Assembly: GCA_043825875.1 (NCBI GenBank)
Contig: JBDRRF010000090.1
Location: 1 to 29,230 of the forward strand
Length of the DNA stretch: 29,230 bases
Direction of reading: 5' to 3'
From: Pseudomonadota bacterium
GTDB taxonomy: Bacteria; Desulfobacterota; Desulfobacteria; Desulfobacterales; RPRI01
The notes below the pieces were generated by a model. That model worked only from the letters and a program-made list of their open reading frames with translations. It had not been told where the DNA came from and ran no database searches. Positions within the stretch are counted from its first letter, which is position 1. Every line of letters begins with the position of its first letter. Shown piece after piece: positions 8,605 to 21,939 of the stretch. The translations under genes and the position numbers were made by a program.

Positions 8605-11313
8605 TCATATTTTATATTCCTTGAAACCTTCCAGCAATTGTCGGAATGAAGATGGCTTGAATGTCTCAAAGCTTTCCTCATCTACATATACAAAGTCGTA
8701 TTTAGCATCCATCTGCACCCGATTGATATCTTCGCACCATTGCCGCAGTCGTTCCATCTTGAGAGGCACATCAATATCTTCCTGCCCCTTGGTTTCTACA
8801 ATAACAATCCACCTGTCCTTTAGTTTGACTATAAAATCCGGGTAATAGTCGGAGATATTGCCGTCTGCTTTTACGTAATCGAGCTTGAAATGGACGGCCA
8901 TGTAGTTCATTGCAAAAGAGACCACATCGTCGCAATTTTCCAGAAAATCGGCGAATCTAAGCTCAAGCCGGCTGTCACCAATAATGCGGTTGAAGACGCT
9001 TTTTTTAGGGACAAGATAGCCTTGATCCTTCGCTACAAAAGGCCGGGTCTGGCGCAACTTTATGGTATCCCGTATTTCGGCATCGCCTTTGTCCCGGATT
9101 GTCAGTGAGTTGATGGCCTTTTTGAATGTTTCAAGCAGTGTTTTGGTGGCGGCCAGTTCTGACAGGTTGCGTAATGTGTTGGGGTCTTCCAGATCCACCG
9201 GGTGGTCAAACAGCTCCTCTCGCACGAACGCCTTGATCTTGCCATACAGCACATCGTAACCACGCGGAGCAGATCCCTTACGATATTCCAAGCGCAATTC
9301 TTTCAGAATTATTTGCGCGAAATAGCCGATCACACTGCGGTAGTCGGCAATGCCAGCAGTATCTAAAATCGTGGTATGCGTAATCTCTCCGTTGGTGATG
9401 TCCTTAAATACAATCTCCCGTTGTTCTTCCTCGCTAAACTGCTTATAAAGCACTCGTTGATGTCCCATTGTGGCGATGTCCAGATCACCCAGGTTTTTGT
9501 ATTCCCTGTAAATGCGGGGTGACAGTATGGGGATTTCTATATCCAGGGCCGCTATATCTTTCTTCTCGTTTTCCTTGTCAACTTCGATTACAAGCGGTGT
9601 CTTTGGTGCTGTTCCTTCCCCCATAGCCTTACGTTCCAGTACCACGCCTTCAGCCTGGATAGATTCCACAAATTCCATAAAGGCATTGGTGCCGACCACA
9701 CTGACATACTCTTCAACATCACCGGGATACATCTTACGTAAACCGCGCCCAAGCGTCTGCTCGGGGAGAATATTGCTCTTTGCGCTGTAGGCACGTAACC
9801 CGACGATGGTCGTAACATTGCGGACATCCCATCCTTCTTTAAGCATCATAACCGAGATGATAGCCTTGTGTGGGCTCTCCATCTCATCTATCTCATTAGC
9901 CTGTTTGCGCAGTTTCTCCAGTTCCTCCTTACCCTTGCCCGTGGCTGCTTCCGAAATCTCACCGTTGTTCTTTGTATGAATAACCAGCACAGCTTCTTTA
10001 TCGGCAAATTCCGGATAAGTAGTCTGCAGATATTCGGCTACATCGTCACAGTTGCGTGTATCGTCAGTCATTATAAACAGGATGGCCTTCTTACCCATCT
10101 TCTCGTGTTCATCGTACGCCTTGCGCCATTCGATTACACCCAGATGGATATAGTCGGCGTACTTCTCGGTGAATTTCGCGCTTTGACGTTCGCTCAGTTT
10201 AGCACGGCTGGGTGCGTCGGGCAGGACTGGATGCTTGACAACGTTCTGCCAAATTGCCTCCACGAGTGGGTAATCAGCAATGGTCTGTACGAAAATTGCC
10301 CCGTTGTTGTGTTTGGGAGTAGCTGTTGTGTCCACCTGCATGGAAAGAGCCGCCCCTTTCTGTTTAAGGCGGTTGTGGATATCTTCAATAGATTTGAACC
10401 AGGCCATGCGCGGATCGTGAATATGGTGGGCCTCGTCATTCAACACCATCAGTTCGTCTATATCACGAACAATCATGCCAAGATCTACTTTAGAATCATT
10501 GGTTGCACCTGTTGGACGCTTGCCTAAAAAATAGTCCCGCATATCTTCATCATCCGGTGACGGCGGAATATCCTCACCGGAATATACACGGTGGATATTG
10601 GTCAGAAATATATTGCCGGTAGACCTGGTAATGCGAACCTCATCCTGCAAATGCAAAGTCAGCTGGAAATCATCGCGCCAGTTATGCCCGTCATAGCCGT
10701 TATCCGGCACTACCGGATCATCGAAGAAGATTCGCAGTCCCTGAAAATCCCGGTAAATACGATCCAACACAATAATGTTTGGGGTGATAACCAGAAAGTT
10801 GCGTGCAAGTTCGGATTCAGGCTCATAAAGCTTATGATAAAAACTCCACGCCAGCGCCAAACTTAATACCTTGGTTTTACCGCTGCCCGTTGCCATCTTC
10901 ACTACAAACCGCCGCCAGGTTTCATCAAACATGCCCCCGGAAACAAGTCCGCTTGCATCAAAGCGCATCAGATCATGTTTGTCCTTAACCCCAGCCACAT
11001 CGTAAAGATAGACTATAGTCTCCAAAGCCTCACGCTGGGCAAAGTAGTATCCAAACTCCACCATGGTTCCATCGGACTTCGGCAACAGGTGCGGCGTGTT
11101 GAACCACCAATTGAGCAGGCTCCGGCTGGTGTCTGCCGCTCCAGAGTATCCTCCATCACGGAACGCCTTTACCTTACGGCGCAGTTCTGCCACAAGAGGC
11201 GGCATCAACTTTTCCATACTACTATCCCGCAACACCTCATCAGCGGGAAACCATCGGATACCAGGTTCGAGAATTGCGTGTGGGGAAGCAGGAAAATCAG
11301 GATGAAGTGCCAT
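8605..11313 (-). CDS. res: Type III restriction-modification Res-like subunit (SF2 helicase plus PD-(D/E)xK nuclease)
   Basis: MATGSGKT Walker A, NDEAHH, TAT, MLKEGWD, EQTLGRGLR; C-terminal YYPDF...VETKG; downstream of mod. Confidence 0.88.
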   Translation of the reverse strand: MALHPDFPASPHAILEPGIRWFPADEVLRDSSMEKLMPPLVAELRRKVKAFRDGGYSGAADTSRSLLNWWFNTPHLLPKSDGTMVEFGYYFAQREALETIVYLYDVAGVKDKHDLMRFDASGLVSGGMFDETWRRFVVKMATGSGKTKVLSLALAWSFYHKLYEPESELARNFLVITPNIIVLDRIYRDFQGLRIFFDDPVVPDNGYDGHNWRDDFQLTLHLQDEVRITRSTGNIFLTNIHRVYSGEDIPPSPDDEDMRDYFLGKRPTGATNDSKVDLGMIVRDIDELMVLNDEAHHIHDPRMAWFKSIEDIHNRLKQKGAALSMQVDTTATPKHNNGAIFVQTIADYPLVEAIWQNVVKHPVLPDAPSRAKLSERQSAKFTEKYADYIHLGVIEWRKAYDEHEKMGKKAILFIMTDDTRNCDDVAEYLQTTYPEFADKEAVLVIHTKNNGEISEAATGKGKEELEKLRKQANEIDEMESPHKAIISVMMLKEGWDVRNVTTIVGLRAYSAKSNILPEQTLGRGLRKMYPGDVEEYVSVVGTNAFMEFVESIQAEGVVLERKAMGEGTAPKTPLVIEVDKENEKKDIAALDIEIPILSPRIYREYKNLGDLDIATMGHQRVLYKQFSEEEQREIVFKDITNGEITHTTILDTAGIADYRSVIGYFAQIILKELRLEYRKGSAPRGYDVLYGKIKAFVREELFDHPVDLEDPNTLRNLSELAATKTLLETFKKAINSLTIRDKGDAEIRDTIKLRQTRPFVAKDQGYLVPKKSVFNRIIGDSRLELRFADFLENCDDVVSFAMNYMAVHFKLDYVKADGNISDYYPDFIVKLKDRWIVIVETKGQEDIDVPLKMERLRQWCEDINRVQMDAKYDFVYVDEESFETFKPSSFRQLLEGFKEYKI

Positions 11314-11318
11314 ATCAG

Positions 11319-12182
11319 TTATTCGCCTTTCTTCTTCTTTGCGGTTGCTTTAGCCTTACCGAGCTGTTTGCGCTGTTTGGTTTCTATTTTTTTGATGCTT
11401 TCCGCCACCGGCAATTCTTCGGGCATTGTGCCGCCTAATTCCCGGATGGTTTGCCGAACCTTTGCACCGACTTTTCGATGAGTAATATTTGCTGCCTCTT
11501 TTCCCTTTACCTTGTCCCGGCGCAACTTCTCCTCCGCCTGTGTCGCGCGAAACAGATTTGCCGCTAGTTCCGTGCTGCCCATGTGATCCAAAATCTTCTG
11601 GCTCTTTTTCAGGCCTTTCCGCCGATGAATGTCTTCCTGTTTTAGTCCACCATAAAGACCCATATATCCGTGATTTTGAAAAATAGCATAATCCATCGGT
11701 TCGATGACGCCAGCATTTTTGGCCGCATCAGCCAACTGAACATTATGGTGTCGGATCTCTTTACGCAAAAGAATCCGCCGTTCCTCCTCAATCTGTTCAT
11801 CAGCCAATTCCTGCCGCCGTGTTTGGATAGCAAAGTAGGTTTGACCATGCGCTACGATCTCTTTTTTGGGATCTGCGTTTTGAATAACGAGATAACAGGC
11901 ATAACGCGATAGAAGAACTGTTTTAACGGGTCTCTTCCCACCCTTTCCTATCTCGATCAATTCGGTGACGTCAACGAAATGATCCTCAATGCGGTGTCCA
12001 CTATTGAAACAGGCCATTTTGGCCTTTTCAATAACCCCCTCAAAATTGCGGTAATCGCCGTAGCCCAATATTTCAGAAAAGTCACGGCTTGACCAAAATT
12101 CCATGCCTGCATCGTTCTTGCGTTTGATCCGCTCGAAAGGCGACATATGTGAACCGGCTGTATTCGCAATTTCCTTTGCCAT
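11319..12182 (-). CDS. dinD: DNA damage-inducible protein D family (Bro-N-like N terminus)
   Basis: EFWSSR, LSRYACYLVIQNADP, YFAIQTRRQE, FQNHGYMGLYGG, LDHMGSTELAANLFRATQ, GGTMPE motifs. Confidence 0.88.
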   Translation of the reverse strand: MAKEIANTAGSHMSPFERIKRKNDAGMEFWSSRDFSEILGYGDYRNFEGVIEKAKMACFNSGHRIEDHFVDVTELIEIGKGGKRPVKTVLLSRYACYLVIQNADPKKEIVAHGQTYFAIQTRRQELADEQIEEERRILLRKEIRHHNVQLADAAKNAGVIEPMDYAIFQNHGYMGLYGGLKQEDIHRRKGLKKSQKILDHMGSTELAANLFRATQAEEKLRRDKVKGKEAANITHRKVGAKVRQTIRELGGTMPEELPVAESIKKIETKQRKQLGKAKATAKKKKGE

Positions 12183-14875
12183 TATTTCTTCCCTCCGCTA
12201 TTTCCAACGCTAATATCTACAATCGTCATAGTATCATTACCAAAGATATCTACTACCTTGACCGCTATCTTGCGCCGTCCCGGCGGGCATTCGTGAAAAA
12301 CGCTTTTTAGTTCCAGCGAGCGGTCTTTTTTGGTGCGGAAAGACTGCCACTCATTTTCAAAGATATAATCCCCGGTCCACCGTTCTTCCCATTCTTCGGT
12401 TTCCTCACTCTTCACCCGGATAATTTCGCGTTTGCTCTCGAAGTTAAAATCCACCGCCCAGTAATCAATCCAGTCAGTCCAGTCTTTGGTCAGCACATCC
12501 CGCTTAAATTCACCTTTTGCATCCTTGCTGATTTTAACGATTTGGCCCTTTTCCACTACTATCTTACTGCCAGCTTTCTTGTTTGCCGACAGTGCTGCTT
12601 CAGCATTTGCAATAGAATCCTGGGAGTAAAATACCGAAAAATCGGTAAGCTCCACCGCAATTTTTGCAAGTCCCCCTGACAAGGGGGATTCAGGGGGTTT
12701 CTTTCGCCGGCTTTTGATTTGTTTCTGCAAATCCGAATAAACACCATCCAGGTTACTCATCACGTCCTTATTGGTATACCGTATTACTTCTATGCCAAGC
12801 TGATTAAGCCTCAAAGTGCGGTTTTGATCATATTCAACCTGTTCGGCGTGGCTATCACCATCAATTTCAATTGCCAGCATAAGTTCGGAGCAATAAAAAT
12901 CGACGATATATTCATCCAATGGTTTCTGGCGTGTAAATTTCAAGTCTGAAAATTGCTTGTTTTGCAATATATCAAACCATAACTTGTTTTCAGCCTCGGT
13001 CGGATTTTTTCTGTTTTGACGTGCTTTTTCGGTAAGTGCTTGGTTGTAGTGAATGTAACCCCCCTTGCCCCCCTTTTCAGGGGGGTATTGGATATGCGGT
13101 TTTACCTCAATGGCAGCCACATCGTGGAAAACCACCTGGTTCTTTTCTACTGCCCGTTTGTCGAAAACATCGGCCGGAATATACTTGGGAGCAATATCGA
13201 TTCCCTTGTTCCGTGCTTCATCCAGTATATTCGGGAAAAGCCCCATCTCGAATTCAAAACCCAGAATATCCACTCTGGTGATGTGTTTCTTCCGGCATTC
13301 AAGAATTATCTCTTCGACGAACAGGCGTGTTACCGGCAGATTAACCGGCCCGATAGCCACCAGCCGTCCGGCTTTCTTCCCATGAAATGCGGTAAAGCCA
13401 GTTGTCTTTTCCGCCCGGTAAGCTCTCAAGATCAGATCGAGGAATTCCGCTTCTTTTTCTTCCAGTTGTTTTTGCTGTTCCGCCTCCCGCAGATTGGGAT
13501 TGATGCCGATATAATGCTGACGCTCATATTTACCGAGGTTGAGTATTTCAAAGGCACGGTAGTTTTTCCCTTCGGCTTTGAGTTGCCGTTGCACGCCGAT
13601 CATGCGCTTGCGGGTGGTATGGATGGCAAACTTGCCCAGGTCGGTTGCGATCCACTTTCGCCCCAATTTTTCTGCGATAGCAGCGGTAGTGCCGGAACCG
13701 CAGAAGAAGTCGGCGACGAGATCACCTTCGTTGGACGAAGCTTTGATGATGCGTTCAATCAGGGCTTCGGGTTTTTGTGTGGGGTAGTTGATAGCTTCAA
13801 TAGCTTGTGAATTAATTGGATAAATATCAATCCATAAATCATCAACAATATCGCCTTCCATATCCTCTAAATATTGGATTTTTTCTGGTCTGCCATTTGA
13901 GGTAAACCTAATTATTCCATTTTCAAGGGAATCATTGATCCTTTCTTGAGACCAAATCCAATGCATTCCAGGCGGGGGTTCTAAAACCCTACCTCCAAAA
14001 TCTCTTGCTGGACCTTGTCCTTTTTGGAGCATAGAAACTGTCCGATACAATCGGCCTTTTTCATCCTTTTTATAGTGGCTTGTTATGTATTTCTCATCAA
14101 AAGGGCGATATTGGTTTGTAAAATTAGCCTTTGTAGATTTTGTAAATAAAAAAATTGAATCGTGAACAATCCCATATCCGTTCGTTTGTGCCTTTGTAGT
14201 TCGGATTTTTTGCCAAATAATTTCATTCTTATAGTTGGATTGCGAAAATATCTCCTGTAAAATAATACGCAAATAGCTATTCACCCGCCAATCGCAATGC
14301 ACATAAATACTACCATCCTCCGCCAGCAAATCCCGCATCAGCACCAGCCGTTCATAGATCATGGCAATGAAGGAATCCGCCCCTTTGCCCCATGTATCAC
14401 GGTAGGCAATTTCTTCGAGGATATTGGGTTTCTTGGTGAAGGTGTCGCCGCCAATTGCGATGTCCATGGAAAAATCTGCGCCCACATCGAACGGTGGGTC
14501 AATGTAGATCAGCTTAAGGCCGCCCTGTTTCTCAATCTCTTCGCGCAACGGCCCGTTTTTTAGTGATGATAAAATAAGCTTGTTATCACCCCAAATCAGC
14601 TTATTTGTCCAACCTTTCATCTGACGGCCACGGGTATCAAATAATTCATATTGCAGGCTGGTATCTTCCGGCTTGTCTGCCCGCGGCTCATCCACCTGCT
14701 CAATAACCTGAAACGGAAGTACAATATTGCATACTTCACTTGTCTTACCGTTCCAAACAAGTTCCACTTCCCGCTTGTCCTCAAACAGCAAAAAGCGGTA
14801 CTTTTCCGGCAACGGTTTGTCCGCCTCGATAAAGCGGATAATCTCCTGTTGTTCCTGTTCTGTCAGTCGTGGCAT
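12182..14875 (-). CDS. mod: Type III-like Mod site-specific amino-DNA methyltransferase (beta class) carrying an in-frame DUF559 insert
   Basis: IYIDPPF (motif IV) precedes YPTQKPE and DFFCGSGTT (motif I); long C-terminal extension ending VKVVDIFG. Confidence 0.9.
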   Translation of the reverse strand: MPRLTEQEQQEIIRFIEADKPLPEKYRFLLFEDKREVELVWNGKTSEVCNIVLPFQVIEQVDEPRADKPEDTSLQYELFDTRGRQMKGWTNKLIWGDNKLILSSLKNGPLREEIEKQGGLKLIYIDPPFDVGADFSMDIAIGGDTFTKKPNILEEIAYRDTWGKGADSFIAMIYERLVLMRDLLAEDGSIYVHCDWRVNSYLRIILQEIFSQSNYKNEIIWQKIRTTKAQTNGYGIVHDSIFLFTKSTKANFTNQYRPFDEKYITSHYKKDEKGRLYRTVSMLQKGQGPARDFGGRVLEPPPGMHWIWSQERINDSLENGIIRFTSNGRPEKIQYLEDMEGDIVDDLWIDIYPINSQAIEAINYPTQKPEALIERIIKASSNEGDLVADFFCGSGTTAAIAEKLGRKWIATDLGKFAIHTTRKRMIGVQRQLKAEGKNYRAFEILNLGKYERQHYIGINPNLREAEQQKQLEEKEAEFLDLILRAYRAEKTTGFTAFHGKKAGRLVAIGPVNLPVTRLFVEEIILECRKKHITRVDILGFEFEMGLFPNILDEARNKGIDIAPKYIPADVFDKRAVEKNQVVFHDVAAIEVKPHIQYPPEKGGKGGYIHYNQALTEKARQNRKNPTEAENKLWFDILQNKQFSDLKFTRQKPLDEYIVDFYCSELMLAIEIDGDSHAEQVEYDQNRTLRLNQLGIEVIRYTNKDVMSNLDGVYSDLQKQIKSRRKKPPESPLSGGLAKIAVELTDFSVFYSQDSIANAEAALSANKKAGSKIVVEKGQIVKISKDAKGEFKRDVLTKDWTDWIDYWAVDFNFESKREIIRVKSEETEEWEERWTGDYIFENEWQSFRTKKDRSLELKSVFHECPPGRRKIAVKVVDIFGNDTMTIVDISVGNSGGKK
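12671..12700. repeat. REP-like palindrome at the downstream end of the DUF559 cassette
   Basis: TCCCCCT-GACA-AGGGGGA hairpin followed by TTCAGGGGGTT; encodes KPPESPLSGG. Confidence 0.8.
13057..13086. repeat. REP-like palindrome at the upstream end of the DUF559 cassette (inverted relative to the other copy)
   Basis: Coding strand CCCCCCT-GAAA-AGGGGGG-CAAGGGGGGTT; encodes PPEKGGKGG; 22/28 identical to the other copy. Confidence 0.8.
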
Positions 14876-16768: not shown

Positions 16769-16910
16769 GAGCCACTTTCAAAACGTTTCAGTTTGGTCAA
16801 GCTCAAGGCGGGAGAAAATTTCAACCACAGGAATACATTTAGTATTTCGAGGATTGAAATTTGAGCCCAACGCAGAGATCGGCCCAAATGGGGTGTTTTG
16901 AAACTGGCTC
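16769..16910. mobile_element. MITE-like palindromic element, copy 2 (142 bp, 5-bp TSD AGCAT)
   Basis: TIR GAGCCACTTTCAAAAC / GTTTTGAAACTGGCTC; AGCAT at 16764-16768 and 16911-16915; about 3 substitutions versus copy 1. Confidence 0.9.
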
Positions 16911-21549: not shown

Positions 21550-21939
21550 ATGAAAACAGTAAAAAAAGCAAAACCGGTTAAAAAACCAGCTGTTAAAAAA
21601 GCAGCAGCAAAAAAACCAGCCGTTAAAAAAGCAGCAGCAAAAAAACCAGCCGTAAAAAAAGCAGTAGCTAAAAAACCAGCCGTAAAGAAAACAGCAGCTA
21701 AAGCAGTTAAAACAGTAAAAGCAAAAGCAACAGCTGTAAAAAAACCTTCCAAACCTGAGGTAACCATTCTTGGTTCCGTACTTACAACTGTCAAGAGGAG
21801 CAAAAACGGAATAGCTATTGCAAAAATTAAGGAAAAAACAGGTCTGGAGCAAAGACAACTTAGCAATGCGCTTTATAAGCTTTTAAAGAATGGCAAAGTA
21901 GCACTGAAAGAACGCGGCGTATATATTGCAGCAAGTTAA
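21550..21939 (+). CDS. Lys/Ala-rich histone H1-like protein with probable C-terminal winged-helix domain
   Basis: AAGGAG RBS; four KKPAVKKxxA repeats; C terminus GIAIAKIKEKTGLEQRQLSNALYKLLKNGKV...RGVY fits a wHTH pattern. Confidence 0.8.
   Translation: MKTVKKAKPVKKPAVKKAAAKKPAVKKAAAKKPAVKKAVAKKPAVKKTAAKAVKTVKAKATAVKKPSKPEVTILGSVLTTVKRSKNGIAIAKIKEKTGLEQRQLSNALYKLLKNGKVALKERGVYIAAS
21580..21699 (+). repeat. 30-bp coding tandem repeat, 4 copies
   Basis: AAAAAACCAGCYGTWAARAAARCAGYAGCW repeated four times. Confidence 0.9.

Follow-up and report, generated by a model that had tools for sequence, protein, structure and literature searches.

An apparently undescribed mobile cassette in a type III mod gene, formed by a DUF559 nuclease gene and inverted triplex-forming repeats

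BoxC, PIT and triplex repeats, on record since the 1990s, are present in hundreds of genomes, with their function and their spread described as unexplained (PMC4666352), and the DUF559 domain still carries the label of unknown function in Pfam. Here we describe a locus at which repeats of this kind enclose a DUF559 nuclease gene, and the whole stands in frame in mod, the gene of a type III-type adenine methyltransferase. The locus is part of a 29,230-nt stretch of DNA, hereafter called the window (positions 1 to 29,230 of contig JBDRRF010000090.1, assembly GCA_043825875.1, a Pseudomonadota bacterium placed by GTDB in the Desulfobacterales). The cassette formed by nuclease gene and repeats is real and mobile and, as a pairing of a nuclease with these repeats, apparently undescribed: no title or abstract start was found that links DUF559, YcjD or COG2852 to the repeats, although the flanking-gene supplement of PMC4666352, which lay outside the search, may name ycjD.

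A number of described systems resemble the locus in part. BoxC, PIT and the TM-ECO repeats share with it the succession of C stem, loop, G stem, 3-nt loop and mirror strand, and BoxC and TM-ECO are further reported as dispersed copies, often in inverted pairs, that are unstable between relatives (PMC4666352), as are the repeats of the genome studied here. However, TM-ECO is described as always intergenic in Escherichia coli K-12 and as having no mobility gene nearby, and for BoxC likewise no associated mobility gene is reported (PMC4666352), whereas the repeats in mod are in frame and flank a nuclease, and the subtype at the mod locus, CCCCCT/AGGGGG, departs from the strict TM-ECO pattern, which is matched beside related DUF559 genes. 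In REP/REPIN-RAYT systems (repetitive extragenic palindromes and their associated tyrosine transposases), an enzyme gene likewise lies between inverted structured repeats, these are dispersed as singles and doublets, and the repeat type tracks the enzyme clade (10.1101/2021.07.10.451892). An enzyme flanked by a genome-dispersed repeat is also what we find, with the repeats of this genome fitting a second cassette, on contig C18, better than the copy in mod. The enzymes themselves differ, an HUH (Y1) tyrosine transposase there and a DUF559 nuclease of the PD-(D/E)XK/Vsr group here, and for RAYTs a single, extragenic copy passed on by vertical inheritance is described (10.1101/2021.07.10.451892), while the cassette is lateral, decaying and found within genes. 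Another comparison is with the EDxHD homing endonuclease I-Bth0305I, a member of the same nuclease group that spreads between alleles at one site (PMC3239194). Such endonucleases have a self-splicing carrier or are free-standing genes; the cassette is an in-frame fusion with no intron, intein or NUMOD, its target loop is variable, its co-conversion is very short, and its host sites are many and unrelated. [quoted passage not shown] A last example is ycjD of E. coli, an open reading frame of a DUF-type endonuclease fold, present or absent at one site, where it stands in place of the missing eefRABCD (PMC12817139); that paper proposes no mobile cassette, and its main text has no word beginning with "repeat," "palindrom" or "nuclease." Overall, the cassette is laid out like a REP-RAYT unit and spreads between alleles like a homing endonuclease, and it fails the defining tests of both, and its flanks, judged by their sequence, belong to the triplex-repeat class that includes BoxC.

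An earlier note on this DNA had described a 141-residue block between the Mod residues IEVKPHI and AKIAVELTDF, and this block is indeed present, at 13090-12668, inside the unbroken reading frame of mod (12182..14875, minus strand; 897 residues including the insert). Alignment with the closest empty allele, L025, whose flanking protein is 95% identical to the Mod of the window, sets the limits of the cassette at 12659..13090 (minus strand): 432 nt (13090-12659) stand where L025 has 15 nt (KKNNV), and five codons of a beta-hairpin loop are thus replaced. The note had spoken of an insertion with no evident target-site duplication; the alignment with L025 likewise reveals no duplication at the junctions, but the event was a replacement, not a simple insertion, and the cassette therefore lacks both marks of an insertion sequence or MITE, the duplication and the clean insertion. 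In the AlphaFold model of Mod (mean pLDDT, the predicted local distance difference test, 75.7), the insert lies between host beta-strands 587-596 and 737-748, its core is folded (10-residue blocks at pLDDT 67-91), and residues 599-606 and 729-734 fall below pLDDT 50, so that the flanks are modeled as low-confidence linkers joining the nuclease core to two host strands of a surface loop, in keeping with the claim that the ends are read through as Pro/Gly linkers. As also claimed, intein splice motifs are lacking, with no intein or Hint match in Pfam up to E 10, and no intron was found in Rfam, in which the one weak match (E 0.2) falls far under its gathering score, and we reject both an intein and an intron. 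An assembly artefact is rejected as well, since a possible source sequencing run covers the cassette with zero differences and filled alleles occur in three runs from other studies.

The two ends of the cassette are inverted copies of 28 nt, identical at 22 of 28 positions and each with its own 7-bp hairpin, as the note had it. It had called the cassette palindrome-bounded; three-part triplex motifs, however, describe both ends better than simple palindromes do, and the class is that of BoxC, PIT and triplex repeats and not that of classical REPs. The 5' flank (13058..13085, minus strand), read as PPEKGGKGG, has a 7-nt C stem, a 4-nt loop, a 7-nt G stem, a 3-nt loop and a 7-nt mirror strand, and the inverted second unit at the 3' end (12671..12698, plus strand; PPESPLSGG on the coding strand) has the same geometry. 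Under the ITxF criteria for intrastrand triplexes (three stems of 6-15 nt, loops of 1-6 nt, third-strand pairing G.G, A.A or T.A; PMC4666352), both flanks qualify as purine-motif units (7/4/3) with zero mismatches. We reject strict TM-ECO membership, as the pattern CCCTCNCCC-N3-6-GGGNGAGGG-N3-GGGNGAGGG, taken with at most one mismatch, matches neither flank. Among the Mod-borne DNA copies the triplex geometry is kept in 15 of 17 at each end, and the Pro codons of the flanks are CCC or CCT in 84 of 91 cases, versus 63 of 127 elsewhere: the flanks keep the triplex at the DNA level although they encode only a linker. Their in-frame tolerance comes from G/C runs that are free of stop codons and are translated as Pro/Gly linkers in a surface loop. 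We also observed that relatives (L007, L079; runs X2 and X3) are one base short in the 5'-flank homopolymer (window position 13068), which shifts the mod frame, and by slippage this flank could turn the type III system ON and OFF. In another locus an element of about 860 nt, IS-like by eye, lies inside the 5'-flank hairpin, with a 7-nt word at both its ends (L041:5672-6550).

The nuclease core (12716..13036, minus strand) matches DUF559 (PF04480), as the note had claimed, over Mod residues 614-720, with E 7e-31 when the full protein is searched, 3.6e-32 when only the block is, and a score of 110.9 bits against a curated cut-off of 20.6. Residues Q650, D659, E670, D672, H676, D683 and R686 (Mod numbering), which we take to be catalytic by analogy to the Vsr/EDxHD motifs, are all present in the insert, and 72-73 of 73 Mod-borne rows retain each of the seven columns. 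Among solved proteins 3hrl is the nearest relative (E 1.8e-18), and a published classification places VSR, DUF559, 3hrl and 3r3p in one nuclease group, together with I-Bth0305I (PMC3424549). The median ratio of nonsynonymous to synonymous substitution rates (dN/dS) is 0.13 for the insert (15 pairs) versus 0.08-0.11 for the host, and the sequences indicate that the DUF559 domain in Mod is under purifying selection. No NUMOD or other DNA-binding module was found in Pfam up to E 10, and the core of about 110 residues stands alone between the flanks.

If the cassette came into mod from elsewhere, the note argued, alleles without it should exist, and they prove to be the majority. The best 80 of 484 GTDB matches gave 78 mod loci, 51 empty, 12 filled, three reduced to remnants and 12 unscored, the filled share being biased upward because the insert supplied one of the six search peptides. 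All 12 filled alleles carry the nuclease at the same site, with shared junction residues, and in the three remnants (L031, L063, L067) a flank remains with no nuclease. The empty loops are 8-19 residues long. Frameshifts occur in two of the 51 empty alleles, and frameshifts or interruptions in five of the nine fully read filled alleles, some of which may reflect errors of sequencing, but two runs from other studies show again the loss of 1 nt that L007 has in its 5' G run. In a survey of the genus, which may overlap the GTDB loci and is thus not added to them, six of 17 genomes possess this mod, three filled and three empty. We reject that deletion alone could cleanly bring back the empty state: precise excision cannot restore the empty loop because its five codons are absent from the filled allele. 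The loop seems to gather more than one kind of repeat, as one allele scored empty has an in-frame, GTAG-headed hairpin there (L029:4471-4500; 8-bp stem, read as VGAHGNAP), which looks like what we take to be a GTAG-type REP.

Congruent phylogenies of host and insert, which would have spoken against mobility, were not obtained. On the host-segment tree (97 rows, after removal of five long-branch and five duplicate rows) the filled and remnant alleles as one clade are rejected (56 versus 41 rows, 14 changes; approximately unbiased [AU] test, p 7e-59), and so is the insert clade that includes the window (six of 50 rows, support 96; p 1.4e-4), and with these two results we reject a single origin followed by vertical descent. 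Synonymous codon identity is higher in the insert than in the host when the window is compared with L080 (70/95 versus 147/295), L081 (67/96 versus 80/171), L082 (71/95 versus 144/291) and L007 (98/104 versus 235/315), with p from 3e-4 to 5e-6. The filled alleles match their own host lineage up to 4-5 nt from the 5' junction and about 25-35 nt from the 3' junction, at informative sites, and because they follow that lineage nearly up to the junctions, the cassette itself is the moving unit, exchanged between mod lineages that are far apart and taking along next to no host DNA. The opposite pattern is seen in the pairs L083/L084 and L083/L028, in which the hosts are 46-84% and the inserts 37-50% identical at synonymous codons, and, at the protein level, P0069 and P0041 combine close hosts with very different cores: one nuclease core is replaced by another between retained flanks. 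The trees are unrooted, and the direction of transfer cannot be read from them.

The same domain also interrupts unrelated proteins, as the note had expected. Of the best 120 of 156 long homologues, from a search whose peptides and query favored Mod-borne copies, 84 are Mod, and nine other families contain internal, in-frame copies: RNase HII, LeuRS-type synthetases, MiaA, MiaB, RecG, Mfd, iPGM, HsdM-S and HsdS. In the same set, DUF559 is fused terminally to MutT-like, PrmA-like, SelD, UreG-like and UvrA proteins, and most of the non-Mod fusions carry Pro/Gly flank peptides. Four proteins, one iPGM and three tRNA synthetases (P0043, P0106, P0111, P0115), were seen to contain two separate DUF559 cassettes each. 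That related genes share the inverted flanks, another expectation of the note, is borne out at 95 DUF559 loci with full flanks, of which 75 have a triplex motif facing inward on the upstream side, 59 on the downstream side and 49 on both, versus 7 of 282 control strands; looser patterns agree. On the nuclease tree, Mod-borne and other copies are intermixed (nine changes, three of them forced by starred branches), and the flank subtype tracks the nuclease clade (six changes versus 21.7 when shuffled; 65 typed of 101 rows), although linkage alone can give such tracking. TM-ECO motifs, with at most one mismatch, occur at 10 of 80 metagenome DUF559 loci, and an E. coli DUF559 gene, the product of which is 38% identical to the core in the window, has an exact copy some 190 nt downstream. 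Locus L189, unannotated there in its record, is presumably ycjD. We reject carriage by phages or plasmids, with matches in only 3 of 50,697 phage records and 44 of 72,556 plasmid records, each below 60% identity.

The genome of the window (G000) was scanned for dispersed copies of the repeat, whose existence the note had suggested, and 37 matches to a loose pattern were obtained, 31 of them with perfect stems of at least 6, versus one to four matches in three shuffles. Four of the 37 flank two cassettes, and the rest lie, with few exceptions, between genes, which leaves about 30 free repeats. The second cassette stands alone, at C18:25562-25986, and is a pseudogene with two stops. In 29 of the 37 matches TTA follows the C run, while TGA is found there only in the two flanks of the mod cassette, and an origin of the free repeats from the mod-borne cassette is therefore rejected. 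Instead, they look like deletion derivatives of the C18 cassette, to judge from their sequence, because they resemble its flanks and three of them keep the first codons of the nuclease gene. One miniature derivative, at C22:45579-45649, is a 71-bp pair of inverted repeats with the start of the nuclease gene fused to its end; cassettes decay into nuclease-less repeat pairs and single repeats. Among the congeners, G159, G130 and G163 lack the C18 cassette at the orthologous site, G158 has it there with an internal deletion, besides three intact cassettes elsewhere and 70 repeats, and two free-repeat sites vary in presence or absence among five congeners. In a sample of the order, four of 151 genomes have at least three repeats, and all four have a strong DUF559 match (26 of 151 overall), with the caveat that kin are not independent.

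Empty alleles, discordant trees and shared flanks uphold the central idea of the note, that a nuclease and inverted repeats form a mobile unit able to sit in a protein loop with no splicing. As to the agent of this mobility, we infer that it is the nuclease, and the reading we favor, with only somewhat more confidence than doubt, is that a structure-guided nickase causes its own cassette to be copied and swapped in short patches. The cassette in mod would be one copy of a widespread selfish element of about 0.43 kb, a gene for a Vsr-group nicking nuclease between two inward-facing, triplex-forming repeats. The nuclease would remain active while tethered to Mod, and would recognize not a long host sequence but the folded repeat, a hairpin or triplex in transiently single-stranded DNA, and nick beside it; very short-patch recombinational repair would then copy the cassette into an empty allele, swap cores or seed free repeats. 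The host would pay little, and therefore no intein or intron would be needed.

Several observations weigh against a driving role of the nuclease. The pair of the window and L002 is not a mosaic (p 0.38). The mod gene recombines in short patches anyway, with one host bin 96-100% identical between neighbors at 56-75%, and therefore neutral gene conversion could move the cassette; empty-loop variants, NKRECSV for example, also recur in different host clades. The 28 near-invariant columns of the nuclease include many structural ones, and the conservation may partly reflect folding. The three cassettes of G158 lie at overlapping contig ends and probably form one tandem array, so that three independent transpositions are rejected. 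Within the order, 22 of the 26 genomes with a strong DUF559 match have fewer than three copies of this repeat subtype; G156 has two repeats and no DUF559, G130 has six while its DUF559 is flanked by another subtype, and in G000 free repeats persist though the cognate C18 copy has two stops. The 13 Y1_Tnp matches of G000 could act in trans. As to the structure itself, no stable triplex was found in vivo in PMC4666352.

Some of these points fit a nuclease that is passive cargo, with the repeats moved by an HUH/Y1 transposase in trans or by replication slippage and repair, DUF559 riding along and short-patch recombination shuffling the alleles. The Y1_Tnp matches, the general mosaicism of mod and the repeats with no cognate nuclease all speak for it, and triplex motifs are reported to be unstable sites in their own right (PMC4666352). 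Yet all 13 Y1_Tnp matches in this genome are more than 8 kb away from any repeat, putative catalytic residues retained in nearly every in-frame copy and a dN/dS near 0.13 are not what one expects of a passenger, and the match of flank subtype to nuclease clade, with the above proviso on linkage, also points away from cargo; we consider this explanation unlikely. A homing endonuclease in need of no splicing, which would recognize the empty mod site by sequence, cut it and be copied in by allelic repair, with the repeats as relics of arrival, would account for the single site and common junction residues of all filled mod alleles and for the allelic spread, and Vsr-like domains do act as homing endonucleases elsewhere (PMC3239194). 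It would, however, have to do so with no DNA-binding module, at a variable loop with no conserved target and with co-conversion of a few bases only, and neither the mixing of Mod-borne with stand-alone copies, nor the close relatives in unrelated hosts, nor the preservation of the flanks at the DNA level is what it predicts, which makes it quite improbable.

Two further possibilities start from Mod itself. The domain may have been domesticated by the restriction system, for instance to give Mod a tethered activity on mismatches or in nicking, the latter raised in the note; purifying selection and the intact putative active site are compatible with this, as are the many Mod-borne copies, given the bias of the search, and Vsr enzymes usually accompany methyltransferases, if cytosine and not adenine ones (PMC3424549). 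This idea is weakened by the fact that most mod alleles, including the one 95% identical in the flanking protein, do without the nuclease, that alleles decay to remnants and, allowing for sequencing errors, are often broken when filled, and that the same domain interrupts proteins from RNase HII to HsdS, and we give it little credence. Even less can be said for the proposal, also made in the note, that the inverted ends pair in RNA or DNA and the cassette is excised or bypassed to yield Mod free of the insert. An RNA fold of the block does allow the ends to pair end to end, but nothing else favors it: the reading frame is uninterrupted, the fusion takes a plausible fold in the model, no intron family is matched, excision could not restore the lost codons, and no joint skipping the cassette was found in the possible source run and three other runs, in contigs only, which drop rare variants. 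We regard it as extremely improbable.

The host gene belongs to a type III restriction system. Residues 121-420 of Mod are an N6_N4_Mtase domain (Pfam), the match to the PADLOC MTase_III profile has E 1e-110, EcoP15I Mod (4zcf) is the top fold match of the model, and the fold search with the whole model, in which the matches listed are methyltransferases only, is uninformative on the insert. Mod is thus a beta-class methyltransferase adjoining Res, whose gene lies at 8605..11313 (minus strand; profile matches, PADLOC). Between them, at 11319..12182 (minus strand), is a dinD-like gene with Bro-N (NCBIfam PRK11525, E 5e-119), which also matches PADLOC PDC-S13 (E 6e-117) and is mostly skipped in the alignment with at least one relative. 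The mod-dinD-res block has a GC content of 46.6%, versus 39% for the genome and 37-39% for the neighboring DNA on both sides, and therefore the mod-borne cassette probably arrived with this restriction island. The target-recognition region of Mod (window 13800-14270, residues ~205-355) is 67-82% identical to relatives, and its flanks about 85-95%, as expected from specificity swapping, and the C-terminal half (window 12185-12658 and 13091-13585) is highly conserved with no Pfam match up to E 10. Elsewhere in the window, a 141-bp MITE-like element with terminal inverted repeats of about 35 bp is present twice (1-141 and 16770-16910; 98% identical), and a similar element seems to adjoin a deleted cassette in L219. 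A histone-like protein with 15-nt repeats (KKPAV/KKAAA) is encoded at 21550-21939.

In conclusion, the mod locus ties the BoxC, PIT and triplex repeats to DUF559 and adds a series of alleles at a single position, for which lateral transfer, the swapping of cores and very short co-conversion have been measured. The filled, empty and remnant alleles of this one gene, with the nearest empty one so close to the Mod of the window, are a ready test set. The finding also carries a warning for annotation, in that "DUF559 fusion proteins" are often parasitized genes. More tentatively, and at less than even chances in our estimation, DUF559/YcjD nucleases could be the missing mobilizers of BoxC, PIT and triplex repeats, and would then represent a new class of mobile element, steered by triplexes, spreading by nick-initiated, very short-patch conversion and able to invade coding genes free of splicing, as its recognition ends would be translated as harmless linkers. 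If the nuclease does drive the transfer, the cassette would be a selfish element living inside proteins with no splicing, its nuclease possibly a very small structure-guided nickase, and intrastrand triplexes would have a biological role.

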